A stretch of 64,000 nucleotides of DNA from Spirochaetales bacterium (GCA_016929065.1 JAFGJO010000042.1:16543-80542); one strand, 5' to 3'; positions 4,493 through 60,651 are shown, counted from the stretch's first letter. A program made the numbers and translations. The notes: generated by a model not told the origin, from the sequence alone.

Positions 4493-4538
4493 TGGATGTT
4501 ATACTATAATATTAATGAGGTCAACACAGGAGTATACC

Positions 4539-15275: not shown

Positions 15276-17038
15276 TGTAACCGCCTCCAGCTAATGCTCA
15301 ATTTTGATGAGCGGAGCACATCAGTTGAAAAATCGAATAGAATTCGTGAAACGAAAAGGGCCGTAAAGAACGAGGTGACAATACCCACACAAAGAGTAAA
15401 GGCAAACCCCTGGATGCTTCCCTTTGTAAAAAGGGCAAGCACGATACCGGCGATAAAGGTGGTGACATTCGAGTCAAGGATTGTCCAAAAGGCCCGGGAA
15501 AAACCCGCTTTCACTGCTGCCTTTGGTGTTTTGCCAAGATGATACTCTTCCTTGATGCGTTCATAAATAATGACGTTTGCATCGACAGCCATACCGATCG
15601 TCAGGATGATACCTGCAATACTGGTCAGCGTGAGTGTAAAGTTGGTCACCGACAACAGGGTAAGAAGCAGAAAAATATTTGAAACAAGCGCAATGTTTGC
15701 GATGAAACCTGCACCTTTATAATATACCAGCATAAATGCGAGGACGAGAAGCGCGCCAATGATCATCGCATTCATCCCGTTTACAATAGTGTCTTCTCCA
15801 AGACTTGCACCAACTGCAGATGTATTGCCGATAATCAGCGGTACCGGTAAAGCACCGGTTTTCAGAACCTTTGCAAGGTCTTCTGTATCCTGATATGAAA
15901 AATCTCCCGTTACACGGACCTGTCCATTGGGAATGGTGTCTTTTATATACGGATAGGACATAACCTTCTGGTCCATCACCACCGCAAGGAATTTCCCCTT
16001 GTTTTTCTCGGTCAAATCGCGGAACTGGGCAATACCGTCTTTTGTCTCTCCGTTCGCGTCAATATAGGTATCAATCGTAAATTGAACAATCGGTGTACTT
16101 TCCTGGATGTCAACAGTGGCTCTTGCTTCCTTGATCGCTTCGCCAGGGAGCCCAATTTCATTTGAAATCGCGACAAAATTGAGAAGGTCATCCATCCCAT
16201 AGTCATCTTTCCCGTAATATCCGAGGATTTTTACACCGGATTTCAGTTCAAAATCAGCGGGAGGGATAACTTCGCCGTTTGCATTAAACTTTGGCACATA
16301 GGTTGTATTTTGCGCCAGATATTCCTTGAAGGCATTATGCATTTCATCATCAACAAGATGGAATGCGAGTGTCCCTTTTCCAAGAATAACCTTTCGCACC
16401 CGTTCCACATCTGCTGCGCCAGGAAGTTCAACGATAATATTGTCGGTTCCAATCTGCCGTCGGATAATCGGCTCAACCGTACCAAACTGGTCAAACCGGG
16501 ACAACAGCCGTTCCATGGCATCCTGCAGGATCCTGTCCTTGTCGATCGTCACCGTCTTGTCATCAGCTTTCTTGTCGGCAGATTCATTGGTCTCATTCTT
16601 TGCCTGTTCTTCAAGCTGCTTCTGCACATAATTAAAATCTGCTGAAAGCGAAACATTCAATCCGCCCTGCAGGTCCAAACCTAGCTGCATTGTCAAATCA
16701 CGAAGCTGTTTGACGCTTAAAATATTGTCCCGAACCCGGCCTTCGACAGCCGTTTTATATGCCTCGGGATCCACACTTGCATACAGCTTTTCCAAAAAAA
16801 TCCCCTGGCTTTTTCCATAAGGAGAAAAGCCTTCGGATTCCCTGATAAAATCAAGAAACGCGGCATATTCCGCCGCGGCCTTGGTTGTTGCATCCTGTTT
16901 AATCTGAGGCAGAGAACCCAGGGCCAAATCCTTTGATTCTTCCGGGATGAGAAAATACCACTGTATTGTAGGAGAGATAAACATCGCTCCAACAATGAGT
17001 ATGATGATAAGAATTATTATTCTTCCTCGTAAACTCAT
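15272..17038 (-). CDS. secD: Protein translocase subunit SecD
   Basis: It matches the SecD family throughout. Confidence 0.9.
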   Translation of the reverse strand: MSLRGRIIILIIILIVGAMFISPTIQWYFLIPEESKDLALGSLPQIKQDATTKAAAEYAAFLDFIRESEGFSPYGKSQGIFLEKLYASVDPEAYKTAVEGRVRDNILSVKQLRDLTMQLGLDLQGGLNVSLSADFNYVQKQLEEQAKNETNESADKKADDKTVTIDKDRILQDAMERLLSRFDQFGTVEPIIRRQIGTDNIIVELPGAADVERVRKVILGKGTLAFHLVDDEMHNAFKEYLAQNTTYVPKFNANGEVIPPADFELKSGVKILGYYGKDDYGMDDLLNFVAISNEIGLPGEAIKEARATVDIQESTPIVQFTIDTYIDANGETKDGIAQFRDLTEKNKGKFLAVVMDQKVMSYPYIKDTIPNGQVRVTGDFSYQDTEDLAKVLKTGALPVPLIIGNTSAVGASLGEDTIVNGMNAMIIGALLVLAFMLVYYKGAGFIANIALVSNIFLLLTLLSVTNFTLTLTSIAGIILTIGMAVDANVIIYERIKEEYHLGKTPKAAVKAGFSRAFWTILDSNVTTFIAGIVLALFTKGSIQGFAFTLCVGIVTSFFTALFVSRILFDFSTDVLRSSKLSISWRRLQ

Positions 17039-44141: not shown

Positions 44142-44639
44142 TTATTTAAAAATGTCTATTAACAATCGCTTTTTATGGTCATTAAAGAGAGATACAATTG
44201 CTGTCACTTCTTCATTTGTAAAATTTCCGGTTACCTGCAATTTGCCTCCCGGAATTGTATCAACAATCTTTGCGACAACCACCAGCTCACCGTTGATGAT
44301 CAGCGCCGCAGAATCTCCTATATGGGCTGCAGTAAAATCAAACAGCTTTACAGCACCCGCATCAGAAAAATTAATCAGAATTATCGGCTGACGCGTCCTT
44401 CTATCACGATCTTTTTTTATGGAGACAATATCCGAGTCCTCCAGCACGATTTCAGAAGCAAGCCAGATTTCTTCACCGGTTCCTTTTTGCAGAAAGGGTT
44501 CTGCTTTCGGAGTATTTTTTTCCACCACAAGCCGCATCTGGAAAACAGGCACTGCTTCGATTTGTTCTGCGTTTTCCTGCGCGAACAATACTGCATGAAC
44601 ACCAAGAACAAAAACAAAACCTGCCAATAATCTTTTCAT
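44142..44639 (-). CDS. Secreted hypothetical protein
   Basis: It has a signal peptide but no motif I recognise. Confidence 0.5.
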   Translation of the reverse strand: MKRLLAGFVFVLGVHAVLFAQENAEQIEAVPVFQMRLVVEKNTPKAEPFLQKGTGEEIWLASEIVLEDSDIVSIKKDRDRRTRQPIILINFSDAGAVKLFDFTAAHIGDSAALIINGELVVVAKIVDTIPGGKLQVTGNFTNEEVTAIVSLFNDHKKRLLIDIFK

Positions 44640-45303: not shown

Positions 45304-45451
45304 TCAGCTTTAATACACACTTCCCTGCCTCTTCTCCTGTATATAAAACACCTCAAATCCAAAAAAGCTACACTGAATTTTGGCCTCTGCTTGCCTTAAC
45401 TGATGTTTACCATTATTATTGAAACATCATTTTCAAAACCAGGAAAACTCT

Positions 45452-48331
45452 ATGAACAAAATCATTATACAAGGCGCCCGTGAGCACAACCTTAAAAATA
45501 TCGACATTACTCTGCCGAGAGACAAATTTATTGTGATCTCGGGACTTTCCGGTTCCGGGAAATCATCTCTCGCATTCGATACAATTTTCGCAGAAGGCCA
45601 GCGGAGGTATGTCGAATCGCTTTCCGCGTATGCACGGCAATTTCTGGGCAGGCTCGACAAGCCCGATGTCGACTATATCGAGGGGCTTTCCCCTGCCATT
45701 TCGATTGAGCAAAAAACCACCCATAAAAATCCCCGTTCGACGGTTGGAACGGTCACCGAGATTTATGATTACCTCCGGTTATTATTCGCACGGATCGGTA
45801 CGCCCCATTGCCCCACGTGCGGCAAGGAAATCAAAGAGCAGTCAATCGACCAGATCATCGATACCATTCTGGCGTATCCACAGAACAGTAAAATAATCAT
45901 CTGCGCCCCAATCGTCCGGGGCAGAAAGGGCGAGCACCAGAAGATTTTCGAGGATGCAAAAAAAGGCGGATTCGCACGGGTGCGGGTAAACGGGGAAATT
46001 CGATCGCTCGAAGAACAAATACCCCTGGAAAAAAACAAAAAGCACTCAATCGAAATTGTTGTCGACCGTCTCACCGTACATGGCGAAAACCGTCAACGGC
46101 TCGCGGAATCGGTTGAAACCGCATTGGAACTCGCCGGCGGCAAGCTGACTGTCATCACCATTGACGGAACAAAAGAGACCGAGGAGTTTTTCTCGCAGCT
46201 TTTTTCCTGTTCAGAATGCGGAGTGAGCATCCCTGAACTTCAGCCGAGGCTTTTTTCGTTCAATAACCCCTACGGTGCCTGCGAGACCTGCTCCGGGCTG
46301 GGAGTTACCCTGGAGTTCGATCCCGGCCTGGTCATTCCCGATCCCTCGCTTTCATTTAATGAGGGAGGGATTGCGCCGTATAATCCCGAAGCAGCCTGGT
46401 ATAAAAGCCGGGTGGGTTCGCTGGCAAAGCATTACGGATTCACCCTTGATACCCCGTTTGATCAGCTGCCGAAACAGGTTCTGAAAAACATTCTGCACGG
46501 CACCAAAGATGCAATTGATTTTACCTATACCAACCGCGACAAACGGGGGAAGTGGGAATATACCTCATCGTTTATCGGGATCCTCCCCGATTTAAAACGC
46601 CGGTATTTCGAGTCTACCTCGGAGGGAGTCAAGGAATGGCTGGAGCAATACATGCGTCAGGCCGAATGTCCGGCGTGTTCCGGCAAGCGCCTGCGGCCCG
46701 AAAGCCTGGGTGTCACAGTATCCAATAAAAACATCTGGGATGTGACGGTGCAGTCAGTGGGTGACGCAGCTCGTTTTTTCGATACACTCAAACTGAGCGA
46801 AACCCAGGCCAAAATTGCCTCTCAAATTCTCAAGGAAATTAAAGCGCGGCTCACTTTCATGATCAACGTGGGGCTCGATTACCTCACCCTTGAACGAAAA
46901 GCGGCAACACTCTCCGGGGGCGAGGCGCAGCGGATCCGGCTTGCAACGCAGATCGGTTCACAGCTGGTCGGAGTGCTGTATATTCTGGATGAGCCGACAA
47001 TCGGGCTGCATCAGAGGGACAACCAGCGGCTCATTGACACGCTCAAACACTTGAGAGATATCGGGAACACACTCATTGTTGTGGAACATGATGAACAGAC
47101 ACTCCGCACGGCGGACTATATTGTGGACCTGGGACCCGGCGCCGGCGTGCATGGCGGGCATGTAGTCGCCGCCGGCACCTATAATGAAATACTTGCGAAC
47201 AAGAAATCGGTCACTGGCCAGTATTTGTCCGGCGCGATTGCCATTGAACAGCGGCCGCAGCGGCGCCCGGTTGATGACAATAAAAAAATCATGCTCCTCG
47301 GCGCAAAGGAACATAATCTTAAAAATATCGATGTCGGGTTTCCACTTGGTGTGTTCACGGTGATTACCGGGGTGTCGGGATCGGGGAAGTCGACCCTGCT
47401 CTCGGACCTGTTGTACCCGGCGCTTTCAAACAAAATCATGCGCTCCCATCACCGCGAGGGCAGTTACGGGAAAATTACCGGGACAAAACATGTCGACAAG
47501 GTGATCAATATCGACCAGAGCCCCATCGGAAGAACCCCGCGCTCAAACCCCGCGACCTACGTGGGGCTGTTCACGCCCATTCGTGAACTGTTTGCAAAAC
47601 TGCCGGAATCACGGGCGCGCGGCTACAAGGCCGGCCGATTCTCGTTTAATGTACGCGGCGGACGGTGCGAACACTGTGAAGGCGACGGTACACTCCGCAT
47701 CGAAATGCACTTTTTATCGGATGTGCATATTACCTGCGACAATTGCAAAGGCAAACGCTATAACCGTGAAACACTTGAAATCCGGTACAAAGGAAAGAAC
47801 ATTCACGATGTGCTGGAAATGACCGTCGAGGAAGCGCATGGCTTTTTTGATAAAATACCAATGATCGAACGCAAACTCCGGGTGCTCCGCGATGTTGGAC
47901 TGGATTATGTCAAACTCGGCCAGTCAGCGCTCACCTTATCGGGCGGGGAAGCACAAAGGGTAAAACTGGCTCTTGAACTGTCCAAGAGGAGCACCGGCCA
48001 GACGCTCTACATACTGGACGAGCCGACTACCGGGCTTCATTTTGCCGACGTTAAAAAACTGATTGAGGTACTGCAGCTCCTGGTAAACCAGGGGAACACC
48101 ATTATCCTTATCGAACACAACCTGGACGTGATCATGCAGGCAGACTATATCATTGACCTGGGGCCGGAAGGCGGCGACCGCGGCGGGCAGGTTATCTGTG
48201 CCGGCACTCCCGAGCAGGTGATGGAATGTAAAGACTCATACACCGGGCATTATCTGAAAGAGGCTTTGGCACAGAACGGGAATAAAAAACCGGCTACGAA
48301 AAAAGCAAAGAAAATGCAAAAGAGAAAATAG
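45452..48331 (+). CDS. uvrA: Excinuclease ABC subunit A
   Basis: It has two ABC ATPase modules with zinc-finger insertions ([15 protein letters not shown] ... LSGGEAQRI). Confidence 0.95.
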
Positions 48332-48410
48332 ATACATTTTTATATAAACCCTACCCGCTCTTTGTCAATGGTGATACCCTATAATTGATGCGAAATTCAC
48401 AAAAATGTGG

Positions 48411-48439
48411 TTGATACAGGTCAGGGTATGTTTTACAAT
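48411..48439 (+). promoter_or_regulatory. Putative sigma70-type promoter (TTGATA-N17-TACAAT) for the island operon
   Basis: It lies ~95 nt upstream of the ATPase gene ATG. Confidence 0.3.
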
Positions 48440-48533
48440 TGTCATGGCATAATGTAAAGTATAAAACCTTCTATATATAACATTTTCCAGGCTGGAAATA
48501 GTCGGTAAGAATATATCGTTGCAAGGGGTTATT

Positions 48534-51500
48534 ATGAATACAGTCTTACAAGCCCTTCATGATTCCTGTGTTCCGCGAAAGAGCGTCTTTGACAAATCCC
48601 GTAAGGACGTAGTCCTTCACCTGGGAGACCTCCTAACAGGAAAACTCAAGGAAAAAGATGCGGAGCTTTTCTTTGATGAGAACTTTGTCACCAAGGGCAT
48701 GAAGTCGTTGATTGAGAAGACTTTCCAGCGCCTTTGCGGGAAGAAAGACCAGGCTGCGACGTTTCTGCTCTCACAGGCCATGGGCGGCGGCAAGACACAC
48801 TCAATGCTCGCCCTGGGATTGCTTGCAAAATATCCGGCTGCGAGGGCGAAATTATGGAAAGAATCAAAGCTCGACGACATGGCGATCCGGGTGATCGGCT
48901 TTGACGGCAGGGAATCAGACTACCCATTCGGGATCTGGGGCTCTATTGCCGAGCAGTTGGGAAAAAAGGATCTGTTCAAGAACCTCTACACTCCCCTTCA
49001 GGCGCCCGGGATCACCTCATGGATCAATCTCCTTCAAGGCGAGCCGACGGTGATCCTGCTCGATGAGCTTCCGCCATACTTTATGAGCGCCATGTCCAAA
49101 TCCGTGGGCGACAGCAACCTGGCCGCGGTGACAACGACCGCAATTTCCAACCTGATGGTCGCAGCCAACAAAACGGAACTTAATAACATCGTTATTGTCA
49201 TTTCAGACCTGTCGGCAACTGCATATTCCAACCTGGGCACCGGGGTCATGGCGGCCCTGGATAACCTGGAAAAAGAAACAAACCGGAGCGCTCTTGTCAT
49301 TGAACCGGTGGCGACACAGGGCGACGAGGTTTTTCACATTCTGAAGACACGGCTTTTTGAAAAATTGCCGGAAGAAAAGATAAAAACCGATGTTGCGGCC
49401 GCGTACGCGGACGCGGTGAAGAAGGCAAAACAGATGGAGCTCACCGCTGCGACGCCGGAAAGTTTTGCAGCCGAGATTAAAGATTCATATCCCTTTCATT
49501 TTTCCCTGCGCGATTTATACGGCCGCTTCAAGGAAAATCCCAATTTTCAGCAGACGCGCGGGCTTTTGCGCATGATGCGCTCGATTATTGCCAATATATG
49601 GGAAAGCGGCAAGGCAAAAAAACTGTATCTAGTACATCCGTATGACATCGATTTGAATGACGGCGACATTTTTACGGAGTTCGACCGCATCAATTCAAGT
49701 CTCTCGGAAGGAGTACGCACCGACATCGCGAACAGCGGCCATTCGCACGCCGAGGAGCGCGACGCGGAATTGAAGACCACAGACGCAACGGACGCGGCAA
49801 AACTCATCTATGTGTCCTCGCTTTCCACAGCACAGAAGGCGGTTATCGGCCTGCGGGATACGGAGATTATTGCCTGGTTGTGCGCGCCCGGCCGCAGTAT
49901 GGAGCGGGTGTTGAGCGACGTGCTTGAGGTCCTGCCAAATCGGGCATGGTATCTGCATCTGTCGCTTGACGGAAGGTTGTACTTTAAAAACATCCAGAAC
50001 CTGGCGGCCAGGCTTTTCGGGATGGTGAGCACTTCCACCAAGGAAAACAAGATCCAGGAATTGCGCAAATACCTGCAATCCCTTTTTGAGCCCAAAATGA
50101 AGGATTTGTATCAGGATATCAAGGTGCTATCGCCGATAGACGACATCACCATCACGCAAGAGAAAACCACGCTCATTGTTACTGACCCTTGGCCTGACGC
50201 GAAATCCGACCAGCCGCTTAATCCGGAGTGGGTCAAGTTCCACAACGATCAGACCTGTCAGAACCGGATGTTTTTTTTGACCGGCGACCGCAACACCATG
50301 GACGAGGTGCTCAAGAACGCCGCGTACCTCAAGGCCGTGGAGGTCGTACTTGCAGAGCAGGAGCAGGAGGGCGTGTCGCCCAAGGACCCGCAGGCGAGCG
50401 AGGCCCGGCGGAGCAAGGATAAATACCAGGTACAGCTGCGCAGCGCGGTCCAGCAGACCTTTTCCACTATCGTATACCCTGCGCGCGGAAAACTGCGGCA
50501 TGAACACATCAATTTTAATTTTGACAACAACCAGTATGACGCGGAGGCACAGATCAGGCGCACACTGGCTGACAACCAGAAGTTCTCGCTGGATGCTGCC
50601 AATGAGACCTGGATCAAAAAGGCGGAGGAACGCCTGTTCGACAACCAGAATCCGGTGCCCTGGAACGAGGTGAAAAAACGCGCGGCGGTGAAGCCGGAAT
50701 GGCAATTCCACCACCCGGGCCTTTTGGAGGACATCCGGGAATACGCAATAAAAACCGGGCGCTGGCGGGCGGAAGGCAACATGGTGCGCCGGGGGCCGTT
50801 TGAAAAGGAACCGACCGGCGTGAAGGTCGCGCTGAAAAGTTTTGATTCTGATACCGGCGATGCGATTCTGCAGATAATCCCTGAAAACGGCAACAAAGTG
50901 TATTACGAAATCGGCGATGCAAAGCCGACCACATCGTCACTGATCGTTACTGATTTTTCAAGTTTTCGCACCAAAGAGCTCAAGTTAACCTTTCTCTGCG
51001 TGGACGAGGGACCGGACCCGCGGCCAACGGGGAATCCTTACGTATGGAAAAATACAATTCAAATCAAATACCGGATTTACTCCCAAGGCAAGGAATATTA
51101 TGCACAGGTTGTCGCAAATCCGCCGGTACCGCTCCGCTATACTACGGAAGGCCGTGATCCGCTGGAACACGGCGTACCCTATGCCGGGGACATTCTCCTG
51201 CCGCCGGAGTGCACCATGCTTCAGGTTGTGGGCGAAAAAGACGGGGTGATGAGCAGAGTAGAGACGTTCAGGATAGACCGCAAGCCTGGCGGGGAAATAG
51301 ATCCGGACAAGCCCGCGGTCTGGTACTGCGGCAGGCATTTCCAGCACAAGCCGGGGGCGGAGGCGTTTCAGCTCCTGGACCGCGCAAAGGAACTTCGGGC
51401 AAACCTTTCATACGTGCTCGTCAATTCGGTCTCTTCGGATACGGAAGAGGCGCTCATGTACACACTACCCAAAAATCATCTGCGATCTGCTGAGGAAGTT

Positions 51501-51653
51501 GGCAATATTTGCAACAATCTGCAGGAGATGATCCCGGACGCGCATCTGACATTGAGCATCCATGAGATACACTTCACGCGAGGCCAGGACCTGCTGGACT
51601 GGATGCAAAAGGACCGGCTTTCCATTGACGTTGCCAAAGAGGTGAAACAGTGA
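48534..51653 (+). CDS. Large P-loop ATPase of the DUF499/BrxC-PglY-like type (phage-defence associated)
   Basis: It has a Walker A motif (MGGGKTHS) near residue 90 and a DE(L) Walker B motif (ILLDELPPYF), and is ~1040 aa. It is GC-rich relative to the flanks. Confidence 0.65.
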   Translation: MNTVLQALHDSCVPRKSVFDKSRKDVVLHLGDLLTGKLKEKDAELFFDENFVTKGMKSLIEKTFQRLCGKKDQAATFLLSQAMGGGKTHSMLALGLLAKYPAARAKLWKESKLDDMAIRVIGFDGRESDYPFGIWGSIAEQLGKKDLFKNLYTPLQAPGITSWINLLQGEPTVILLDELPPYFMSAMSKSVGDSNLAAVTTTAISNLMVAANKTELNNIVIVISDLSATAYSNLGTGVMAALDNLEKETNRSALVIEPVATQGDEVFHILKTRLFEKLPEEKIKTDVAAAYADAVKKAKQMELTAATPESFAAEIKDSYPFHFSLRDLYGRFKENPNFQQTRGLLRMMRSIIANIWESGKAKKLYLVHPYDIDLNDGDIFTEFDRINSSLSEGVRTDIANSGHSHAEERDAELKTTDATDAAKLIYVSSLSTAQKAVIGLRDTEIIAWLCAPGRSMERVLSDVLEVLPNRAWYLHLSLDGRLYFKNIQNLAARLFGMVSTSTKENKIQELRKYLQSLFEPKMKDLYQDIKVLSPIDDITITQEKTTLIVTDPWPDAKSDQPLNPEWVKFHNDQTCQNRMFFLTGDRNTMDEVLKNAAYLKAVEVVLAEQEQEGVSPKDPQASEARRSKDKYQVQLRSAVQQTFSTIVYPARGKLRHEHINFNFDNNQYDAEAQIRRTLADNQKFSLDAANETWIKKAEERLFDNQNPVPWNEVKKRAAVKPEWQFHHPGLLEDIREYAIKTGRWRAEGNMVRRGPFEKEPTGVKVALKSFDSDTGDAILQIIPENGNKVYYEIGDAKPTTSSLIVTDFSSFRTKELKLTFLCVDEGPDPRPTGNPYVWKNTIQIKYRIYSQGKEYYAQVVANPPVPLRYTTEGRDPLEHGVPYAGDILLPPECTMLQVVGEKDGVMSRVETFRIDRKPGGEIDPDKPAVWYCGRHFQHKPGAEAFQLLDRAKELRANLSYVLVNSVSSDTEEALMYTLPKNHLRSAEEVGNICNNLQEMIPDAHLTLSIHEIHFTRGQDLLDWMQKDRLSIDVAKEVKQ

Positions 51654-52219
51654 GCGAAGTGCTGGGATTCGGCTTTTTCCCGGAGCGCACAACGCACTGC
51701 TTTGTCGTGCACCTGCCGAATACGGCAAAGGGAGAAATCGCCATTACAGAAGAGTTTAAGTGGGCGCTTGAACAGGAATCGTTTGAAAAACATGGTCTGC
51801 AAAATCCCGACCTGAAAGTACTTCTTTCCATGGAACTCTGGAAAGAGATCGCGGACGAGGCCAAGGCCGAGTTTAACCGCAGGCTCATCCGGCATGGCGT
51901 AAAGTCCGGCAAGTGGCCGGCGAAAGGCAAGGTGCCGGTTGACCGCAACCTTGGAAAGGAACTGGTACTCCTGGCCTGGGCCGTGGAGGACGCGGACCCC
52001 GTGCTCATCCCCAATGCGGTACGCAACTGGTTGGGCTTGAGCCCGGAGGAGCGCTGGTGGCTTTTCACCATGACCAACGCGGCCACGGGCCAGGCTTTGG
52101 GCGGCCGCAACAAGGGCTGGCGTAAAGCCGTACGCTTTGCGCTCACGGAAAACCCCATCGCCGATTCAGTCATAAAAAAACGCGTGAGCGATTTTGAATT
52201 GCCGCTTTTTCGGGAGTAA
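51650..52219 (+). CDS. Small conserved protein, translationally coupled (GTGA overlap) between the ATPase and the MTase
   Basis: It is 189 aa with no catalytic motif I can see. Confidence 0.5.
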   Translation: MSEVLGFGFFPERTTHCFVVHLPNTAKGEIAITEEFKWALEQESFEKHGLQNPDLKVLLSMELWKEIADEAKAEFNRRLIRHGVKSGKWPAKGKVPVDRNLGKELVLLAWAVEDADPVLIPNAVRNWLGLSPEERWWLFTMTNAATGQALGGRNKGWRKAVRFALTENPIADSVIKKRVSDFELPLFRE

Positions 52220-52224
52220 TAACT

Positions 52225-55101
52225 TTGCCGCATAAACCACTCATTGAAACACAATTCCCCCTGGCGATCTTGAGCGCCGAAAGCTACAAGGAGCGCAAGG
52301 CCAATTTGGGACAGACGCTCACAGGTCTTGGAAAATGGTGGGGCAGAAAGCCGCTCATACTAGTACGCGCGGTCATCCTGGGTCTTCTCATGCCCGCATC
52401 CGACAATCCGGAAAAGGACCGCGAGGTATTCCTGCGCGTGCTCACCATGGACGAGGACGGTCTGTGGAAACGCAAGAGCAAAAAAATGAGCGCGGCCCAA
52501 GTTGCCGGACAATTGAGCCCGCAGGAGAGCACAGGAATTATTGAAATAAACGGCGACAAGCCCGCCTGGAAACGCGGTCTGGACGCAACGGACAAACTGC
52601 GGCTTGAGAAACTCGCCTTTAACCGCCTGGATTATGAGGAAAAGCTTACGCTTTGCGACCGGCCGGAGCAGATTGACGGGCCCAGTGAAGAAAGCTGGCA
52701 GGAAATAAACCGGCATTTGGGTACTTGCGCCGCAACCCTGCAGGAACTCTTCGCCGAGCTTTCCCGGAAAGCATTTGGCCGACTCGCGCGAGTTGGTGAT
52801 GTGTTTTGCGGGGGCGGCTCCATTCCGTTTGAAGCCGCCCGGCTGGGGCTTGAAGCCTACGGAAGCGACTTGAATCCCGTGGCCGCGCTGTTAACCTGGG
52901 CCGCAATCAATTTGATCGGCGGTGGGAAAGAGGTACAGGAGCAGGTGCGCAGTGCGCAGAAGGAAGCTTGGGAAGCGGCGGACAAACAAATCACGGAATG
53001 GGGGATCGAACACGACAGTGCGGGGAATCGTTCAGACGCCTATCTCTATTGCATAGAAGTAAAAAGTCCGGCCACTGGTCTGTGGGTGCCTTTGGCGCCT
53101 AGTTGGGTAATTGGAGAGAGAAGCAAAGTCATCGCGGTTTTGAAAAAAAATGAAAAGCGGCACGGATATGATATCAATATTGTAACCGGGGCAACAGACA
53201 AGCAGATGAAGGAAGCCAAAACCGGTACGGTGCAGGACGGTGAACTGGTCTGCCCGGAAACAGGCAAGCGCTACAGCATTGCCAGCCTGCGCGGGGATCG
53301 CCGGGATGAAGGGGAATCCGTTTACGGCCTGCGGCTTTGGGAAAACGAGGACCTTGTCCCGCGGCCTGAAGACACATTTCAGGAACGGCTTTACTGTGTG
53401 CGCTGGGTCACTCCGGAAGGAGAGCGGCTCTATAAAAGTGTGACGCAGGAGGATGAGGCGCGGGAACAAAAGGTGCTTGCGCTTTTGAAAGAACGGTTTT
53501 CCGAATGGCAGGAGAAGGGGTATATTCCGTCAAAACCAATTACACGCGGTGGCGACAAAACAGAAGAACCGATCCGGACACGCGGCTGGACGCACTGGCA
53601 CCATTTGTTTAATCCAAGGCAATTGTTGGTACATGGGTTGATATCAAGTATTAATACTTCAAGAGATAAAATAAATAGGGTATTCCTTCTGTTGTGGATT
53701 GGTAGCCTATCAAATCGTGATTCAAGAATTGTTGGCTGGGTTCCTTCATATGGAGTTGAGACTACTGATCAAGTATTTACAAACCAGGCATTAAATACAA
53801 AATTTAACTGGGCGGCAAGAGGTTTACTAGGATATAAAACAGTCACTAATATTAGGGCCAATTATAATGTAAACATTAACTCCAGTAAAATTGAACCACA
53901 AGATGCTCGAGTAGCTCAAAGTGATAATCACTTATGGATAACAGACCCACCATATGCTGATGCTATAAATTATCATGAGATTCTCGATTTTTTCCTCGCC
54001 TGGTATGAAAAACACCTACCCAAGTTATTTCCTGACTGGTATACGGACAGCCGTCCGGCTTTGGCAGTCAAGGGTACAGATGAGGATTTTAAGCACAGTA
54101 TGGTTGGAATTTACGCCAATCTCGCGGCTCACATGCCTGACGACGGCCTGCAGGTTGTTATGTTCACCCACCAAGATGCGGGCGTCTGGGCGGACCTGGG
54201 CATGATCCTCTGGGCCGCTGGACTTAAAGTGACTACTGCTTGGACGGTTGTTACAGAAACAGTATCTGCATCTGATTCCGGCAACTTTGTCCAAGGCACT
54301 GTACTTATGGTTTTACGCAAGCGCTTGGAAAGTAAAACCGTGTTTCTGGACGAGCTCTACCCGCTTGTGGACGACGAGGTGAAAAAACAGCTTGACCACA
54401 TGCACCGTGTGGACGACCAAATTCGCTCCCAGTTCGGAGACACGGACTTCCAGCTCGGCGCCTATGCCGCTGCCCTCCGTGTGCTCACAAGCTACGCGGA
54501 TATCGAAGGCCAGGATATCAAGCATGAGCTTTTCCGCACACGGACCAAGAATGAAAAATCCCCCTTTGAAAATATTATTGACCGCGCTGTCTCCATCGCC
54601 GCCGGCTACCTTATTCCGCGCGGTATTAGCCAGCAGGTTTGGCGCAATCTTGACAACATGGAGCGGCTGTATCTGCGTGGCCTGGAACTGGAACGCCATG
54701 GCGAATTGCGGCAAGGCGCTTACCAGGAACTCGCGCGCGGGTTCGGCGTGCAGGAATACACCTTTATGCTTGCAGACAAGGTAGCCAACCAGGCGAGATT
54801 CAAGACGGCAATCGAGTTCAAGCGGACGCAAATGGGCGAGGGCGACTGGGGCGGCACCCTGTTGCGCCATGTTTTATTCGCCATTCATGAGGCCGTGCGT
54901 GCGGAAAACCCGCGTGAGGGTTTTAATTACCTCAAGAACGCGCGGACGGACTATTGGGCCAGGCGAGAGGACATTCAGGAAATATTCAAGTATTTGGAGC
55001 AGGCAGCCACGCATAGTCACCTTGCGCATTGGAAACAGGACAGCGCGGCGGCGCAATTGGTACGCGGACTCGTCGCGAACGATTATGGCGGGAGCGGGTA
55101 A
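52225..55101 (+). CDS. N6-adenine DNA methyltransferase, 958 aa, DUF1156-like architecture
   Basis: It has an N-terminal KWWGRKP-type region, an AdoMet motif I (VFCGGGSIPFEA...DLNPVA) and the catalytic motif IV DPPY at about residue 570. Confidence 0.75.
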   Translation: MPHKPLIETQFPLAILSAESYKERKANLGQTLTGLGKWWGRKPLILVRAVILGLLMPASDNPEKDREVFLRVLTMDEDGLWKRKSKKMSAAQVAGQLSPQESTGIIEINGDKPAWKRGLDATDKLRLEKLAFNRLDYEEKLTLCDRPEQIDGPSEESWQEINRHLGTCAATLQELFAELSRKAFGRLARVGDVFCGGGSIPFEAARLGLEAYGSDLNPVAALLTWAAINLIGGGKEVQEQVRSAQKEAWEAADKQITEWGIEHDSAGNRSDAYLYCIEVKSPATGLWVPLAPSWVIGERSKVIAVLKKNEKRHGYDINIVTGATDKQMKEAKTGTVQDGELVCPETGKRYSIASLRGDRRDEGESVYGLRLWENEDLVPRPEDTFQERLYCVRWVTPEGERLYKSVTQEDEAREQKVLALLKERFSEWQEKGYIPSKPITRGGDKTEEPIRTRGWTHWHHLFNPRQLLVHGLISSINTSRDKINRVFLLLWIGSLSNRDSRIVGWVPSYGVETTDQVFTNQALNTKFNWAARGLLGYKTVTNIRANYNVNINSSKIEPQDARVAQSDNHLWITDPPYADAINYHEILDFFLAWYEKHLPKLFPDWYTDSRPALAVKGTDEDFKHSMVGIYANLAAHMPDDGLQVVMFTHQDAGVWADLGMILWAAGLKVTTAWTVVTETVSASDSGNFVQGTVLMVLRKRLESKTVFLDELYPLVDDEVKKQLDHMHRVDDQIRSQFGDTDFQLGAYAAALRVLTSYADIEGQDIKHELFRTRTKNEKSPFENIIDRAVSIAAGYLIPRGISQQVWRNLDNMERLYLRGLELERHGELRQGAYQELARGFGVQEYTFMLADKVANQARFKTAIEFKRTQMGEGDWGGTLLRHVLFAIHEAVRAENPREGFNYLKNARTDYWARREDIQEIFKYLEQAATHSHLAHWKQDSAAAQLVRGLVANDYGGSG

Positions 55102-55115
55102 AAGCCGAGCTTTGA

Positions 55116-55171
55116 CCAAAATCAAATTATTGGCAATAATTGCCTAAAATTGCCGATAATTTGATTTTAGG
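55116..55171. promoter_or_regulatory. 22 bp inverted repeat (2 mismatches) spanning the abiEi start codon; putative AbiEi autoregulatory operator
   Basis: The arms are ccaaaatcaaattattggcaat and attgccgataatttgattttagg, separated by an 11 nt spacer that contains the ATG. Confidence 0.5.
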
Positions 55172-55910
55172 AGAAACGACCATAAAGGACTATAGGAAAA
55201 AGATAGCGCTTTACCTCAATTCCCATAAGACGCTTAGTACTGCGGAGGCCGCCCATATTTTCCGGCAGGACGAGGTGGATTTACCAGATGCGACGATCAA
55301 TTGGCGGCTCCATGAAATGGAACAGAACGGAAGCCTTCAGCGAATCGGCCGTGGTAAATACCGTCTTCCGGACAAGCCGGTGTTTAACCCGGAAACAAAG
55401 TCATTTCAAGAAATGGCCGCTTTTATTCGCGGGCAATTCCCGCTGGTGAAGTATTGCCTTTGGGATACTGAGATAGTGCGTGCGCTTGCGCACCATATTC
55501 CCTCGCGCGCGTTTGTGATCGTGGAAGTGGAAAAAGACCCGCTTGAGGAGGTGTACGACAAGCTCAAAGACAAGTATGATTATGTGTTCCTGGCCAAAGA
55601 CTATAATCAGGCATCCGGTTTTCTCAAGAAAGATGTGTCCGCTATTTTTATAAAGCCGCTATTATCAGAAGCTCCCGTACGGATTCTCAATGGCGTCCCC
55701 GTACCAGAACTGGAAAAAATACTTGTGGACACCCATCGCGACATGGACCTGTTCAGCTTCCTGGAGGGAAAAGAATGGAACAACCTCTGGGAAAACGCAT
55801 TGGCGCGGTACACGGTCAATACGACGAGGCTCCTGCGCTACGCCGCGCGGCGTGGGCAACGAAAGTTTTTCTACAGTCTGTTTCATCCTGGAACGGTAAA
55901 AAATGATTGA
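55140..55910 (+). CDS. AbiEi-like antitoxin/transcriptional regulator (type IV TA, COG5340-like)
   Basis: It has an N-terminal winged HTH (LSTAEAAHIF...LQRIGRGKYRL), is ~250 aa, and overlaps the downstream gene by 8 bp. Confidence 0.6.
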   Translation: MPKIADNLILGETTIKDYRKKIALYLNSHKTLSTAEAAHIFRQDEVDLPDATINWRLHEMEQNGSLQRIGRGKYRLPDKPVFNPETKSFQEMAAFIRGQFPLVKYCLWDTEIVRALAHHIPSRAFVIVEVEKDPLEEVYDKLKDKYDYVFLAKDYNQASGFLKKDVSAIFIKPLLSEAPVRILNGVPVPELEKILVDTHRDMDLFSFLEGKEWNNLWENALARYTVNTTRLLRYAARRGQRKFFYSLFHPGTVKND

Positions 55911-56973
55911 TGTAAAAAAGCTAGATCAACAATGGTTTTCCTTAACAAGCAGAGAAATACATGGCGACCCGCTATTGCTTGAAAAGGTGACGAAAGCACT
56001 TTTGCTGGTTGAAAAACTCGCACATCTGGGTCTCAAATTCATCTTCAAGGGCGGCAGCGCGCTCATGTTGCTTTTGGAAAAGACCGCCAGGTTTTCGATT
56101 GATGTGGACATACTCCTGCCGCAAAAGGCGGTCAATATGGTCCTGTCCCCGGTCTTTGACGGCATTGTTTCATCAGGAATCTTTACCCGCTACGAGCCGA
56201 GCCCACGAAAAAAGACCGGAGTACTTAAAAAGGAGCATTTTCGGTTTTTTTATAATTCCTTGGTGCTGGCGGGCGGTGCTGAAGACAACATTATACTTGA
56301 TATCGTTTACGAAGACGGCCTTTACAATACAATCATTTCTCTCCCCGTGACCCTCCCGTTTCTTCCGGTTTCCGGCAAACCAGTGACCGTGTCAGTGCCC
56401 GATCTGGAAAATCTTCTTGGCGACAAACTCACCGCGTTTGCCCCGAATACGGCGGGCATTGCCTATAGAAGAAACAACGTCAGCATGTCCCTGGAAATCA
56501 TCAAGCAGTTGTATGACATCGGGATTTTGTTTAAATTTGTCAACAAACCTGAACATGTCCGTGATGCCTTTGAAAATTTTGCGCGCAAACAGATACAATA
56601 CCGGGGAAGACAATTTTCCGTTGATGATATTTATGAGGACATTTTTCAGACTGCTTTGTGTTTTTCCACAAAGGGTGAATTCGGAATCGGAAACTATGGC
56701 GAACTGCAAGATGGGATAAAAAGGGTCAAAAGCTATATATTTTCAGAGAATTTCAGCATACCCAAGGGTGTAACGAATGCAAGCATTGCCGCCTACCTGG
56801 CGATGATCCTGCGCCGGAAGACCGGGAAAATTGAAAAATATGGCGAACCCGGGTCTGTCACCAGTCTGGAAATCTCTGAAAAAGAATTCAAGATGCTCAA
56901 CAAGCTAAAGAAAGGCAATCCCGAAGCATTTTATTATTGGTACAGGGCGATAGAAGCAAGGAGCAGCCGATGA
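55903..56973 (+). CDS. AbiEii-like nucleotidyltransferase toxin (DUF1814 family)
   Basis: It has the NTase-fold signature FKGGSALMLL...RFSIDVDIL. Confidence 0.7.
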   Translation: MIDVKKLDQQWFSLTSREIHGDPLLLEKVTKALLLVEKLAHLGLKFIFKGGSALMLLLEKTARFSIDVDILLPQKAVNMVLSPVFDGIVSSGIFTRYEPSPRKKTGVLKKEHFRFFYNSLVLAGGAEDNIILDIVYEDGLYNTIISLPVTLPFLPVSGKPVTVSVPDLENLLGDKLTAFAPNTAGIAYRRNNVSMSLEIIKQLYDIGILFKFVNKPEHVRDAFENFARKQIQYRGRQFSVDDIYEDIFQTALCFSTKGEFGIGNYGELQDGIKRVKSYIFSENFSIPKGVTNASIAAYLAMILRRKTGKIEKYGEPGSVTSLEISEKEFKMLNKLKKGNPEAFYYWYRAIEARSSR

Positions 56974-59738
56974 TCAACCGTTTCAGTTTTCATAAAGGTA
57001 AAAAGGGGACGCGCTTTCTTGCAGACCGGCTTCAGAACGCGCGCTCCTATGACCGAATCGCGGGATTTTTCAATAGCTCACTTTTGGAATTTGCGGGCGA
57101 GGCGTTGGAAACAGTGAGTGGTAAAATCCGCATCATATGCAACTCGGAATTGCGGCCGGAAGATGTTGCCGAAGCCCAGAAAGCGGAGCAGGCCCAGAAA
57201 ACCAGTTTCTTCAAGCTCGATCCGGAGCAAGTGAGCAAGAACGCCAGGGACAGACTCACACGCCTGCATCGCCTGCTCTCTAATACGGAAAAAGCGATGT
57301 TGGAAATACGAGTTTTACCGAACGAGGCTTTCGGTCTCATCCACGGCAAAGCCGGAGTCATCTGCTTCAAGGACGGCAGTCGGACGAGCTTTCTTGGATC
57401 AGCCAATGAAACCTTCGCCGCCTGGAATCTCAACTATGAACTCGTCTGGGAGGATGACACTGTGGAGGCATGCGACTGGGTGCAGTCGGAGTTCGACCGG
57501 CTCTGGACGCACCCGCAGGCAGTGCCGCTTGCGCAGGCGGTCGTGAAGGAAATCGAGCGGCTGGTGGATCGCCGCGAACTGAATCTTGATAACTGGAAAA
57601 AACAGGCAGCGCCCGCGGGTGTGCTCGTGGAAGCACCGGTGTACCGGGAAGAGTTTGGGTTGTGGCCGCATCAGCGTTATTTTATTGACCTCGCCTGGAA
57701 AACGCATCTGGCTTTTGGAGCGCGCTATGTGCTCGCGGACCAGGTTGGCCTGGGGAAAACCGTTCAACTCGGTATGGTGGCGCAGCTTGTCGCGCTTGCC
57801 GGTAATCTGCCCGTGCTGGTGCTGTTGCCAAAGACGCTCATGGAACAGTGGCAGACCGAGTTGTGGGATTTACTGGAGGTCCCTTCTGCGCGTTGGGCGG
57901 GCAGACACTGGATAGATGAAACAGGTTATGAGCACTCCCCCGAAGGGCAGAATCCACTTCTGCATTGCCCGTGCAAGATCGGTCTTGTATCACAGGGGCT
58001 TGTCACCCGGGGGAGCGCGCAGGTAAAGGCGCTTTTAGCCCGAGAGTGGGAATGTGTCCTTGTTGACGAGGCGCACCGCGCCCGCAGGAAAAAGCTGCCC
58101 AAACCGGATGAACGCGGTCCGGCGATCGGCAATGTTGATGCGGACTGCAATAAACTGTACGGATTTCTTTTCAAGATTGCATCACGGACGCGTTCAATGC
58201 TTTTGTCTACTGCCACACCCGTGCAGATGCATCCGATTGAGGCTTGGGATATGTTACGTATGCTTGCGGAGGCAAACGATCATGTATTGGGGAGCACAGG
58301 GAGTAATTGGCGGAAACCTGAACTGGCGCTTCCATATTTATTACAAGAACAGGAAATACCGGAAGATGTACAGACGCTCTGGGAGTGGCTGCGGAATCCA
58401 TTCCCTCCAAAGTGGGAAGAGATGAATTTTGCATATCTAAGGCTGCAGCTCGGTGTGGATGATGCCCAGGCGGTTATCGCAGAGCAGTTCAGGGACTATA
58501 ACAAGCTTACGCCGGACTTGAAGACAAGAATGGATCAAAGCATGAAAAATCTATTCGGGGATCATCATCCGTTTTTGCGGTTTATCGTGCGGCGTACCCG
58601 GAAATATCTGGAAGACACAATTGATCCCGCCACCAATGAACCGTATTTAAACCGGATTGAAGTAGAGCTCATTGATGACCAGCCCGTGATTCTGGGCAGT
58701 TATTTGAAGCAGGGCTATCAGGCCGCGGAGAAGTTCTGTAAACTGCTCGCCCGCAGGGTGCGGGCCGCCGGCTTTTTTAAAACACTCCTGTTGCGACGAA
58801 TCGGAAGTTCCATAAAGGCGGGTCTTAATACCGTGAATATGATGCTGTCAAGCTGGGATATTGCAGAGCCCGGAGAGGATGAAGAGGATATCGAAGATTT
58901 ATTTGAAGATGATGACACCTCGGATGAACGGTTCTCGGAAAATACACGTTCCGAGCTCAAACAGCTTACCCGCGAGGAAACGGATATCCTTCGCGATTGT
59001 CAGCGAGCCCTTGAACAAGGCCTAAGCCAGCGTGAAGGTGCAGATCCCAAGCGGGATGTCGTCATCGAGTTTCTAAAAAACAAACGATGGGCTGAAGACG
59101 GTTGTATACTGTTTTCACAATATTTTGATACCGCGAAATGGATTGGTGAGGAGACAGTCCGACTGTTCCCGGATTCACCGGTTGGACTCTATGCAGGAGG
59201 CGGAAAATCAGGGATCTGGGAGAATGGCCAGTTTCTGAAAAAGTCCCGCGAGGAAATAAAAGCCAAGGTTAGAAGCGGAGAAATCAAAATTCTTGCGGGA
59301 ACAGATGCCGCGAGCGAAGGTTTGAACCTGCAGGCTTTGGGAACGCTCATCAACGTGGACTTACCATGGAATCCGACGCGACTTGAGCAGCGCAAGGGGC
59401 GAATACAGCGTATTGGACAATTTCGCGATAAAATAAAAGTGCTTAACTTGCGGTATAAAGATTCAGTCGAGGACAAGGTACATCAGGTTCTGTCGGGACG
59501 TCTGCAGGACATCCATGAATTGTTCGGTCAGATTCCGGACGTGCTCAAGGATGTCTGGGTGGAAATCGCGCTTGATGATGTTGAAGCCGCTAAAAAGCTT
59601 ATCGAGGATCTGCCCAAAATGAATCCGTTCGACAACCGTTATTCAAAACTGGAAATGATTTCCGGCTGGGACACCTGGAACAAAGTGCTTAATAAACAGG
59701 ATAAGTTATACAAACTAAGGGAAGGTTGGGGGCAATAA
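56970..59738 (+). CDS. PLD-family nuclease domain fused to a SNF2/SWI2-type helicase
   Basis: The N-terminus has an HKD motif (HGKAGVICFKDGSRTSFLGSANET). The helicase has motif I (GLGKTVQ), a DEAH box (LVDEAHRAR) and C-terminal motif VI (QRKGRIQRIGQ). Confidence 0.8.
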   Translation: MINRFSFHKGKKGTRFLADRLQNARSYDRIAGFFNSSLLEFAGEALETVSGKIRIICNSELRPEDVAEAQKAEQAQKTSFFKLDPEQVSKNARDRLTRLHRLLSNTEKAMLEIRVLPNEAFGLIHGKAGVICFKDGSRTSFLGSANETFAAWNLNYELVWEDDTVEACDWVQSEFDRLWTHPQAVPLAQAVVKEIERLVDRRELNLDNWKKQAAPAGVLVEAPVYREEFGLWPHQRYFIDLAWKTHLAFGARYVLADQVGLGKTVQLGMVAQLVALAGNLPVLVLLPKTLMEQWQTELWDLLEVPSARWAGRHWIDETGYEHSPEGQNPLLHCPCKIGLVSQGLVTRGSAQVKALLAREWECVLVDEAHRARRKKLPKPDERGPAIGNVDADCNKLYGFLFKIASRTRSMLLSTATPVQMHPIEAWDMLRMLAEANDHVLGSTGSNWRKPELALPYLLQEQEIPEDVQTLWEWLRNPFPPKWEEMNFAYLRLQLGVDDAQAVIAEQFRDYNKLTPDLKTRMDQSMKNLFGDHHPFLRFIVRRTRKYLEDTIDPATNEPYLNRIEVELIDDQPVILGSYLKQGYQAAEKFCKLLARRVRAAGFFKTLLLRRIGSSIKAGLNTVNMMLSSWDIAEPGEDEEDIEDLFEDDDTSDERFSENTRSELKQLTREETDILRDCQRALEQGLSQREGADPKRDVVIEFLKNKRWAEDGCILFSQYFDTAKWIGEETVRLFPDSPVGLYAGGGKSGIWENGQFLKKSREEIKAKVRSGEIKILAGTDAASEGLNLQALGTLINVDLPWNPTRLEQRKGRIQRIGQFRDKIKVLNLRYKDSVEDKVHQVLSGRLQDIHELFGQIPDVLKDVWVEIALDDVEAAKKLIEDLPKMNPFDNRYSKLEMISGWDTWNKVLNKQDKLYKLREGWGQ

Positions 59739-60003
59739 ACCCGGGTATTCACACGCATGAAATCACTTGCCGCTCTGGTTGCCGTACTGATAATTACCAT
59801 TCTGCTCGCATTCACTGTTGCCGTTCTTATATCAGGGTGCTGACAGACAACCAGTTTGTCAGCACCCTGCTAATTCTATAGACCGCACAGCAGTATATAC
59901 CAGCGAAAATACTCCTCAATAATAATGCTTGCCTGCAATTTTTTGTAAATAACCTGATTTCTTTCACATTATTTGATATATTTATCCTAAAAAGGACAAT
60001 GAC

Positions 60004-60651
60004 ATGTTCGCAGGATTGTCAAACACAGGAGTCTCAGCGTTTTCTTCCGGGCTGTCACCGCGTAGTAATTACCTTCAGGGAATTGACGGCGCAGTAAAGG
60101 CGCATGAGAAGGCGCATCTGCTCGCACTCGGCGGGTTTGCGAAGGGCGGTATTTCCTATGACTACCTGCTCACCTCAGACGGCCACAAATACGCAGTCGG
60201 CGGCTCGGTGGGGGTTGATATTTCACCGGTCCCTGACGACCCCAAGGCAACCATCCGGAAAATGCGGACCGTGCGGGCCGCAGCCTTAAGCCCCACGCAC
60301 CCCTCCGCCGCTGATACCGGGATTGCCTCAAAGACCCTGCAGATTGAGATGCAGGCCCATCAGCAGCTGAAAAAGGAACAGCTGGACAGCAGCGCATCAA
60401 TTGGTATTGCAGCGGCCACATCAGCTGATATACCGGCAAATTCAAAGAAGGCCTCAACTCCAGCCAGTTTCGCGGGATCACCCGAAACAATTATCGACAA
60501 GGCAAACGCAGTCCAGACTGAAATTCTGATTTCCGGCGACCGTTCGGCGAGAGCAATGCAGCGGCTCTTTCAGTCGTATATCATGGAAATGAAGGCGCAG
60601 AAAAAACTAAGAGCTGAGGACTCCCTGCCGCAAACCGATATTTTAATCTGA
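60004..60651 (+). CDS. Hypothetical protein with an HExxH metalloprotease-like motif
   Basis: It contains an AHEKAH motif. The coding sequence is GC-rich and lies at the distal edge of the island. Confidence 0.45.
   Translation: MFAGLSNTGVSAFSSGLSPRSNYLQGIDGAVKAHEKAHLLALGGFAKGGISYDYLLTSDGHKYAVGGSVGVDISPVPDDPKATIRKMRTVRAAALSPTHPSAADTGIASKTLQIEMQAHQQLKKEQLDSSASIGIAAATSADIPANSKKASTPASFAGSPETIIDKANAVQTEILISGDRSARAMQRLFQSYIMEMKAQKKLRAEDSLPQTDILI

Follow-up and report, generated by a model that had tools for sequence, protein, structure and literature searches.

The four proteins MtsA, MtsB, MtsC and MtsD constitute an anti-phage system named MANTIS in a preprint (10.64898/2026.09.23.753747), which gives Gao_RL and Gao_29 as the former names and cites Gao et al. 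(Science 2020) for the test of phage restriction by Gao_RL. In the survey of DUF499-centred BREX-related systems by Rakesh & Krishnan (Nucleic Acids Research (NAR) 2026, PMC12839542), the same quartet forms Type-2, with 1120 taxa. The tail of the DUF499 protein often carries two FnIII-like domains, a stand-alone DUF3780 gene is present in 98% of these taxa, the methyltransferase is of the DUF1156 family, and the Swi2/Snf2 helicase carries an N-terminal HKD domain in place of TUDOR; this domain and DUF3780 are synapomorphies of the type (PMC12839542). Here, such a quartet is described in a 64,000-nt stretch of DNA from a Spirochaetales bacterium (GCA_016929065.1, JAFGJO010000042.1:16543-80542), a metagenome-assembled genome (MAG). 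The whole stretch is referred to as the window, and positions are those of the window. The locus is very probably a complete and intact MANTIS (Gao_RL, Type-2 DUF499-centred BREX-related system), with a separate AbiE pair nested between mtsC and mtsD.

The mechanism of MANTIS was dissected in Pseudomonas aeruginosa (10.64898/2026.09.23.753747). MtsC is loaded by MtsA and MtsB and hemimethylates the asymmetric 6-bp sequence CAACAC, in a reaction that depends on ATP binding and hydrolysis by MtsA and on MtsB. Such hemimethylation is documented for this system and for REBASE examples only. MtsD acts on unmodified DNA; restriction of phages and plasmids depends on all four proteins and both ATPases, on the HKD histidine of MtsD and on its Walker A motif, and inverted pairs of sites are best restricted. 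MtsD is a dimer making one PLD site, and resembles SauUSI (10.64898/2026.09.23.753747). A preliminary description of the window, made from the sequence alone, had presented this combination of genes as only predicted computationally and its mechanism as open. That statement has been overtaken by the test of Gao_RL, the Type-2 classification and the dissection of MANTIS.

Results

The four Mts proteins match dedicated models

The proteins were compared with profiles from Pfam, PADLOC (PDLC02189-93 for the quartet) and the NCBIfam "anti-phage" equivalogs NF042961-NF042964. Each of the four Mts proteins matches the dedicated PADLOC and NCBIfam models nearly end to end. MtsA passes the gathering threshold of Pfam DUF499 with 85 bits and aligns with positions 30-1015 of 1022 of PDLC02192 (E = 6e-180). 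Weak Pfam signals for Fn3_assoc and CHB_HEX_C_1, which are FnIII-like, are found in its C-terminal region at residues 866-917. MtsB passes the gathering threshold of Pfam DUF3780 (E = 6e-48) and matches PDLC02191 (E = 2e-45). The score of MtsC with NF042963 is 1333.9 bits, above the 1000-bit cut-off, over positions 1-960 of 960; the PADLOC profile DUF1156_MTase is matched with E = 7e-286 and the Pfam DUF1156 gathering threshold is passed. MtsD scores 1182.4 bits with NF042964 (cut-off of 1100 bits) over positions 2-895 of 895 and matches PADLOC PLD_Helicase with E = 5e-232. Its Pfam domains are PLDc_2 (residues 30-190), then SNF2-rel_dom and Helicase_C.

The DUF499, DUF1156 and PLD plus SNF2 helicase families named in the preliminary description were therefore recovered by the Pfam and PADLOC searches. 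The 189-residue product, which had been termed a coupled protein, does have that length, and its identity had been overlooked: it is MtsB, the DUF3780 protein that defines the type. The locus thus has in common with the Type-2 BREX-related systems a DUF499 ATPase with a C-terminal FnIII-like signal, a stand-alone DUF3780 gene, a DUF1156 methyltransferase and an HKD domain instead of TUDOR.

Catalytic motifs and characterized homologues

MtsA contains a Walker A motif (GGGK87-T-H89) and a Walker B motif (ILLDE178). In MtsC, motif I (FCGGG, 194-198) and motif IV (DPPY, 574-577) are separated by a target-recognition insert. MtsD has an HxK motif (H125, K127) with GSAN, followed by the ATPase motifs GLGK263T, DEAH (366-369) and motif VI (QRKGRIQR, 807-814). 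Only one HxK motif is present per chain, as would fit an active site formed by a dimer.

In P. aeruginosa, mutations were made at K80 and E174 of MtsA, at D621/Y624 of MtsC, and at H122 and K260 of MtsD (10.64898/2026.09.23.753747). The numbering of the corresponding motifs is close. K87 and H89 of the MtsA Walker A motif stand for K80 and H82, and E178 of the Walker B motif for E174. Motif I of MtsC is at 194-198 versus 241-245 (FxGxG) in P. aeruginosa and motif IV at 574-577 versus 621-624, so that the spacing between the two motifs is 380 residues in both proteins. In MtsD, the HKD histidine is H125 versus H122, and the Walker A lysine K263 versus K260.

With SauUSI, a type IV PLD-helicase restriction enzyme, MtsD shares the architecture of a dimeric PLD domain and a superfamily 2 (SF2) motor (10.64898/2026.09.23.753747), whereas SauUSI acts against modified DNA and carries target-recognition domains itself. 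SauUSI was not found among the best 60 of the 80 PDB sequence matches of MtsD.

A locus annotated with the same four NCBIfam names is that of Escherichia coli UMNK88, in which a CopG gene is located upstream. Identity to the E. coli proteins is 30% for MtsA, 40% for MtsC and 36% for MtsD, over the full length, and 43% for MtsB, with the N-terminal half of its homologue. At 366 residues, the DUF3780 protein of that locus (NC_017641.1 3548647-3566907) is about twice as long as the one seen here, and the end of its PLD-helicase gene is overlapped by a restriction-endonuclease gene. Of 5426 complete E. coli genomes, 47 contain DNA that matches the DUF1156 gene.

Comparison with other methylation-based systems

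Partial matches to other defence families were also obtained. The helicase matches DrmD, BrxHI/II (BrxH) and HmaA, the ATPase matches HmaC, the methyltransferase matches HmaB and PglXI, and DrmA and DpdE are among the weaker matches of the Mts proteins. Such matches would be expected if the locus belonged to class 1 DISARM, Type-3 BREX, Hma or a type III/ISP restriction-modification (R-M) system. Membership in one of these families is extremely unlikely, as the matches are limited to shared helicase and methyltransferase cores, with PADLOC E values of 1e-30 to 1e-53, whereas the dedicated models give 1e-180 to 1e-286. With the two DrmD equivalogs, MtsD scores 141.5 bits (NF038317) and 115.8 bits, versus cut-offs of 610 and 950 bits, and its ResIII score of 18.8 bits is below the 22.5-bit Pfam cut-off. 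The DUF3780 protein and the N-terminal HKD mark a Type-2 BREX-related system (PMC12839542).

No PglZ, DrmA, DrmB (DUF1998), HsdS or Res protein was found among the island proteins or 20 open reading frames (ORFs) scanned elsewhere in the window, a set with the largest ORFs outside the island and four ORFs that lack a Pfam match. BREX (types 1-6) was rejected for lack of PglZ in this set, DISARM because MtsD has only partial matches to the DrmD and DrmA helicase cores and no DUF1998 protein was present, and type I/III R-M because no HsdS or Res/Mod family was matched. Hma was rejected since the HmaA, HmaB and HmaC matches are partial and far weaker than those of the dedicated models. With Type-3 and Type-1 BREX, the locus has in common a BrxC-like AAA+ ATPase, a site-specific N6-adenine methyltransferase, which would hemimethylate a 6-bp site, and a RapA-like helicase (BrxHII); it differs by the lack of PglZ, BrxA, BrxB and BrxL and by an effector that is an HKD-helicase nuclease. 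The earlier view of a methylation-discriminating, BREX-related system distinct from BREX, DISARM and type I/III R-M is upheld, as the dedicated models score best. The profile searches assigned the proteins neither to a type I/III R-M system nor, with the 20 ORFs scanned elsewhere in the window, to a BREX or DISARM locus.

Organization of the locus

Six closely packed co-directional ORFs, the four mts genes and the AbiE pair, are found 3' of uvrA (45419-48331; Pfam UvrA_inter and UvrA_DNA-bind). The features are listed in Table 1.

Table 1. Features of the MANTIS locus and its 3' flank (window positions).
Feature	Position	Strand	Basis or remark
Promoter-like site TTGATA-17-TACAAT	48411..48439	+	Consensus scan, 10/12 matches; promoter inferred
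mtsA, DUF499 AAA+ ATPase, 1039 aa (ATG 48534)	48534..51653	+	Pfam, PADLOC, NCBIfam, motifs
mtsB, DUF3780 protein, 189 aa	51650..52219	+	4-bp overlap with mtsA stop
mtsC, DUF1156 N6-adenine DNA methyltransferase, 958 aa	52225..55101	+	NF042963, PADLOC DUF1156_MTase, motifs
Hypervariable low-GC segment of mtsC, aa ~466-570	53620..53934	+	Presumed specificity part of target-recognition domain
Internal promoter-like site and inverted repeat, candidate AbiEi operator	55112..55168	+	Consensus and repeat scans
abiEi, DUF6577-type AbiEi antitoxin/regulator, 256 aa; start may be TTG 55161	55140..55910	+	
abiEii, AbiEii/DUF1814 nucleotidyltransferase toxin, 356 aa	55903..56973	+	Pfam, PADLOC, motifs
mtsD, HKD/PLD nuclease-Swi2/Snf2-type SF2 ATPase fusion, 922 aa (ATG 56970)	56970..59738	+	NF042964, PADLOC, Pfam, motifs
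Hairpin, 19-nt arms, 89% complementary, 5-nt loop	59830..59872	+	~90 bp past mtsD stop
SprA-related ORF, 215 aa	60004..60651		Partial family match, profile positions 192-295 of 335

The ORF calls agree with the co-directional row of genes directly after uvrA that had been reported. The four genes and their sizes also stand; the operon is not one of four genes, as the AbiE pair (55140-56973) had been overlooked. The uvrA-mtsA spacer consists of 187 AT-rich base pairs, and the start proposed for the island, 48411, coincides with the promoter-like TTGATA-17-TACAAT site. On the plus strand of the spacer (48332-48518), no ORF of at least 20 residues was found, and an MtsR/CopG-like ORF is absent. 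Translation of mtsA from an alternative TTG at 48519 would give 1044 residues; the ATG at 48534 is the start in the gene call of an identical contig. Likewise, a TTG at 56937 would extend MtsD to 933 residues.

The hairpin 3' of mtsD is a possible operon terminator; it is not followed by a T-tract and was not picked by the terminator scan. The proposed end, 60651, does not hold, as the last ORF is SprA-related and unconnected to the defence operon: it has no PADLOC match and is not present beside related MANTIS loci. A 28-residue ORF, MKSLAALVAVLIITILLAFTVAVLISGC (59757-59872 region), sits between mtsD and the SprA-related ORF and has a signal-peptide-like hydrophobic stretch and a C-terminal lipobox-like LISGC; its end is overlapped by the hairpin. 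The flanking ORFs are housekeeping genes (histidine kinase, transketolase, SecDF, GroEL, MacB-type permeases, thiamine biosynthesis, CAP protein, rhomboid and VanY).

The guanine-cytosine (GC) content of the other window ORFs of at least 150 residues, uvrA and the SprA-related ORF included, is 0.453 ± 0.033. It is higher in mtsA (0.533), mtsB (0.568), mtsC (0.525) and mtsD (0.517), and is 0.486 in abiEi and 0.453 in abiEii, which is the background level. The shift toward higher GC that had been placed just after uvrA is real and was misplaced: uvrA itself has a GC content of 0.518 and a third-position value (GC3) of 0.60, about 2 standard deviations above the mean of the other window ORFs. The high-GC block therefore begins inside a core gene. 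The SprA-related ORF, at 0.545, is as high as the MANTIS genes. The lowest-GC kilobase of the window is at 4001-5000 (0.372). A stand-alone ORF of 165 residues on the minus strand (44142-44639) contains only the SecDF P1-head subdomain, full secD/secF being located at 13884-17038.

Distribution and conservation

At E ≤ 1e-20, 7955 homologues of MtsC were counted. In the GTDB species genomes scanned, 80 related loci were located, spread over archaea and many phyla of bacteria; wherever one of them holds two or more of the genes, their order is mtsA-B-C-D. The neighbourhood comparison proposed in the preliminary description thus speaks for a conserved module. The nearest locus, L001/L006, is from another Spirochaetales MAG, and its MtsA, MtsB, MtsC and MtsD are 83, 86, 76 and 79% identical to those described here. 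Nonsynonymous divergence (dN) from L001 is 0.09-0.18 for mtsA-D, and no frameshift is present; the ratio to synonymous divergence (dS) is only indicative, as dS is saturated or undefined. This pattern of substitutions indicates purifying selection on all four mts genes, including mtsD 3' of the insertion.

In the nearest UvrA relatives that were found (80 and 76% identity), uvrA is followed by genes unlike those of the window and not by MANTIS; the module is therefore accessory. A 1548-residue UvrA-like protein was rejected as a close relative because it is a double-UvrA paralogue on an unrelated contig (JGI metagenome contig L086, 1874-6520); its UvrA_inter and UvrA_DNA-bind domains are duplicated. 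No direct repeats were found around the island and no integrase among the flanking ORFs scanned. Since downstream synteny is not conserved either, the exact borders of the island are not definable.

Several points weigh against a complete MANTIS that works as in P. aeruginosa. This copy is known from its sequence alone, and its mechanism is deduced by homology to P. aeruginosa, the model system, for which cleavage by MtsD has not yet been reconstituted in vitro (10.64898/2026.09.23.753747). With 30-43% identity only to the E. coli homologues, the length of the site, the hemimethylation and the preference for an orientation may differ. Two proteins are below their NCBIfam cut-offs: MtsA scores 757.6 bits with NF042962 (cut-off of 1200 bits), though aligned over 3-1019 of 1025, and MtsB 158.8 bits with NF042961 (cut-off of 200 bits), in a full-length alignment. 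Sequence searches of the PDB returned nothing for MtsA, MtsB and MtsC, and only generic SNF2/RapA cores for MtsD. Finally, mtsD is parted from mtsABC by the 1.8-kb AbiE insertion, which could alter stoichiometry or regulation.

The parting of mtsD, the two scores below cut-off and the absence of MtsR could also be expected of an inactive or decaying remnant, for example one in which mtsD is uncoupled and an orphan methyltransferase module is left. This is very unlikely, given that none of the six ORFs is truncated and the catalytic motifs are intact, that NF042964 is matched above its cut-off over 2-895 of 895, and that mtsD, free of frameshifts and with a dN of 0.15, retains 79-80% identity to the L001 gene. 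A complete and intact MANTIS is the preferred explanation.

A divergent presumed specificity segment in MtsC

In an alignment of 12 homologues, the least conserved stretch of MtsC was found at residues ~466-570, just N-terminal of the DPPY motif. This stretch is 36% identical to that of the nearest relative, L001, versus 81% for the remaining protein. A trough in the GC content of mtsC (0.367 at 53725-54024, versus 0.52-0.58 elsewhere) lies in the same part of the gene. In P. aeruginosa, the exchange of such an MtsC segment switched the specificity (10.64898/2026.09.23.753747). The divergence and base composition of the segment suggest that the recognition segment was exchanged by recombination. 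As the presumed specificity segment is sharply divergent, the target site is probably unlike that of the nearest relative.

An AbiE pair nested between mtsC and mtsD

The product of abiEi matches Pfam DUF6577 (E = 2.5e-56), AbiEi_4 weakly, and PADLOC PDLC02235 over 4-230 of 240 (E = 2e-67). That of abiEii matches Pfam AbiEii (E = 3e-21; 76.8 bits, above the 22.5-bit cut-off) and PADLOC PDLC02299 over 1-342 of 344 (E = 2e-112). Its pol-beta nucleotidyltransferase motif is intact (GGS50-52...D67-V-D69, with GDKLTA at 173-178). The two genes overlap by 8 bp, and the abiEii stop codon overlaps the mtsD start codon (ATGA).

AbiE systems are type IV toxin-antitoxin and abortive infection systems in which AbiEi autoregulates at inverted repeats of the promoter. 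The pair described here has in common with them the two overlapping genes, DUF6577/AbiEi and DUF1814 nucleotidyltransferase, and has an inverted repeat at its promoter-like site. It differs in being nested in another defence operon, with its stop codon overlapping the start of the MANTIS nuclease gene. The gap between the mtsC stop and abiEi is 38 bp, and a promoter-like site, TTGACC-17-AATAAT, is located at 55112-55140. It is overlapped by an inverted repeat of 20 nt (55118-55137 and 55149-55168) that is 95% complementary. An inverted repeat is present at the same place before abiEi in L001 (9715-9760). The right arms of the two loci share an unbroken run of 19 bases (ATTGCCGATAATTTGATTT), although their AbiEi proteins are only 54% identical. 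By analogy with other AbiE systems, the repeat at 55118-55168 is a candidate AbiEi operator.

The L001 locus has the same DUF6577-AbiEii-mtsD arrangement, with an additional Abi_C gene. Among 5.8 billion proteins, the nearest relative of AbiEii (52% identity) is that of the L001 MANTIS locus; the next one (50%) belongs to a stand-alone DUF6577-AbiEii pair. The dN of the abiE genes versus L001 is 0.38-0.46, which is 3-4 times that of the mts genes. The pair is read as one old insertion that evolves faster than the mts genes, and is most likely an autonomous abortive-infection/addiction module.

Another reading is that AbiE is a functional part of this variant, as a backup abortive effector or a regulator of mtsD, so that MANTIS and AbiE form one layered system. 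The overlap of the abiEii stop and mtsD start in both the window and L001, and the preservation of the arrangement as identity between the mts genes fell to 76-86%, can be taken in this sense, as can the location of the nearest AbiEii in a MANTIS locus. Nuclease and RNase backup effectors within or beside BREX-related loci were proposed in the NAR 2026 survey (PMC12839542). Against such an integrated role stand the second-closest AbiEii, which is in a stand-alone pair, and the background GC content and fast divergence of the abiE genes. It is also made unlikely by the content of the same junction in other loci, as follows.

Cargo at the operon junctions

Gaps between mts genes were counted in the related loci that hold both flanking genes. 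Of 75 loci with both mtsC and mtsD, 39 have more than 400 bp between the two genes and 26 more than 1 kb; in about half, the genes are adjacent. Between mtsB and mtsC, gaps above 400 bp are found in 25 of 73 loci and above 1 kb in 17, and between mtsA and mtsB in 4 and 1 of 72 loci, respectively. The ORFs at the mtsC-mtsD junction are of many unrelated types: Fic (8 of 52), Schlafen with HATPase_c_4 (6), PIN (5), RloB/AAA_21 (3), and also Mrr, GmrSD and Abi_C. AbiE occupies this junction in 1 of the 75 related loci only, which is L006. The mtsB-mtsC junction contains AAA_15/AAA_21 ATPases (7 of 50), GmrSD, Uma2, YoeB, PIN and an OLD-like TOPRIM protein. From these gap and ORF counts, cargo at the junctions is common, and AbiE is one rare instance of it.

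A text search of PMC12839542 gave no mention of AbiE or Fic cargo, and inserted genes are not discussed in the preprint (10.64898/2026.09.23.753747). It may be speculated that the mtsB-mtsC and mtsC-mtsD junctions are docking sites for exchangeable second-line modules, and that the AbiE pair is wired in here, with its internal promoter and translational coupling setting the dose of the nuclease, and with AbiEii as a backup if MANTIS is inhibited. This idea is considered doubtful; an autonomous AbiE module inserted in a complete MANTIS locus is favoured.

Discussion

By analogy with the P. aeruginosa system, the four proteins may function as follows. The central target-recognition insert of MtsC would allow it to recognize a short asymmetric site; the AAA+ ATPase MtsA would load MtsC onto DNA, and MtsB would stimulate methylation. 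The self mark would be a single adenine methylated on one strand. On unmodified incoming DNA, site-bound MtsABC would recruit or activate dimeric MtsD, in which two HKD halves would form one nuclease site and the SF2 motors would use ATP. Cleavage is expected to be strongest at sites in inverted orientation. As for the AbiE pair, AbiEi would be both an autorepressor and an antitoxin, and AbiEii a nucleotidyltransferase toxin; the pair would provide a second, internal promoter 5' of mtsD.

The locus is like that of P. aeruginosa AZPAE15024 in its four proteins and their order, in the near-identical numbering of the motifs, in the central target-recognition insert and in the single HKD. It differs by the absence of MtsR (CopG/Arc), the AbiE pair between mtsC and mtsD, and the distant host. 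The lack of MtsR and the AbiE insertion are regarded, like the apparent exchange of the recognition segment, as minor variant features of this copy.

The type of system is already catalogued in PADLOC, in NCBIfam and as Gao_RL, and its mechanism was recently described. What the present locus adds is a clean example of MANTIS from a spirochaete, without the MtsR repressor. Two junctions of the operon commonly carry unrelated defence or toxin-antitoxin cargo, which in this copy consists of an AbiE pair in translational coupling with mtsD. The apparent exchange of the MtsC segment illustrates how the specificities of MANTIS may diversify.

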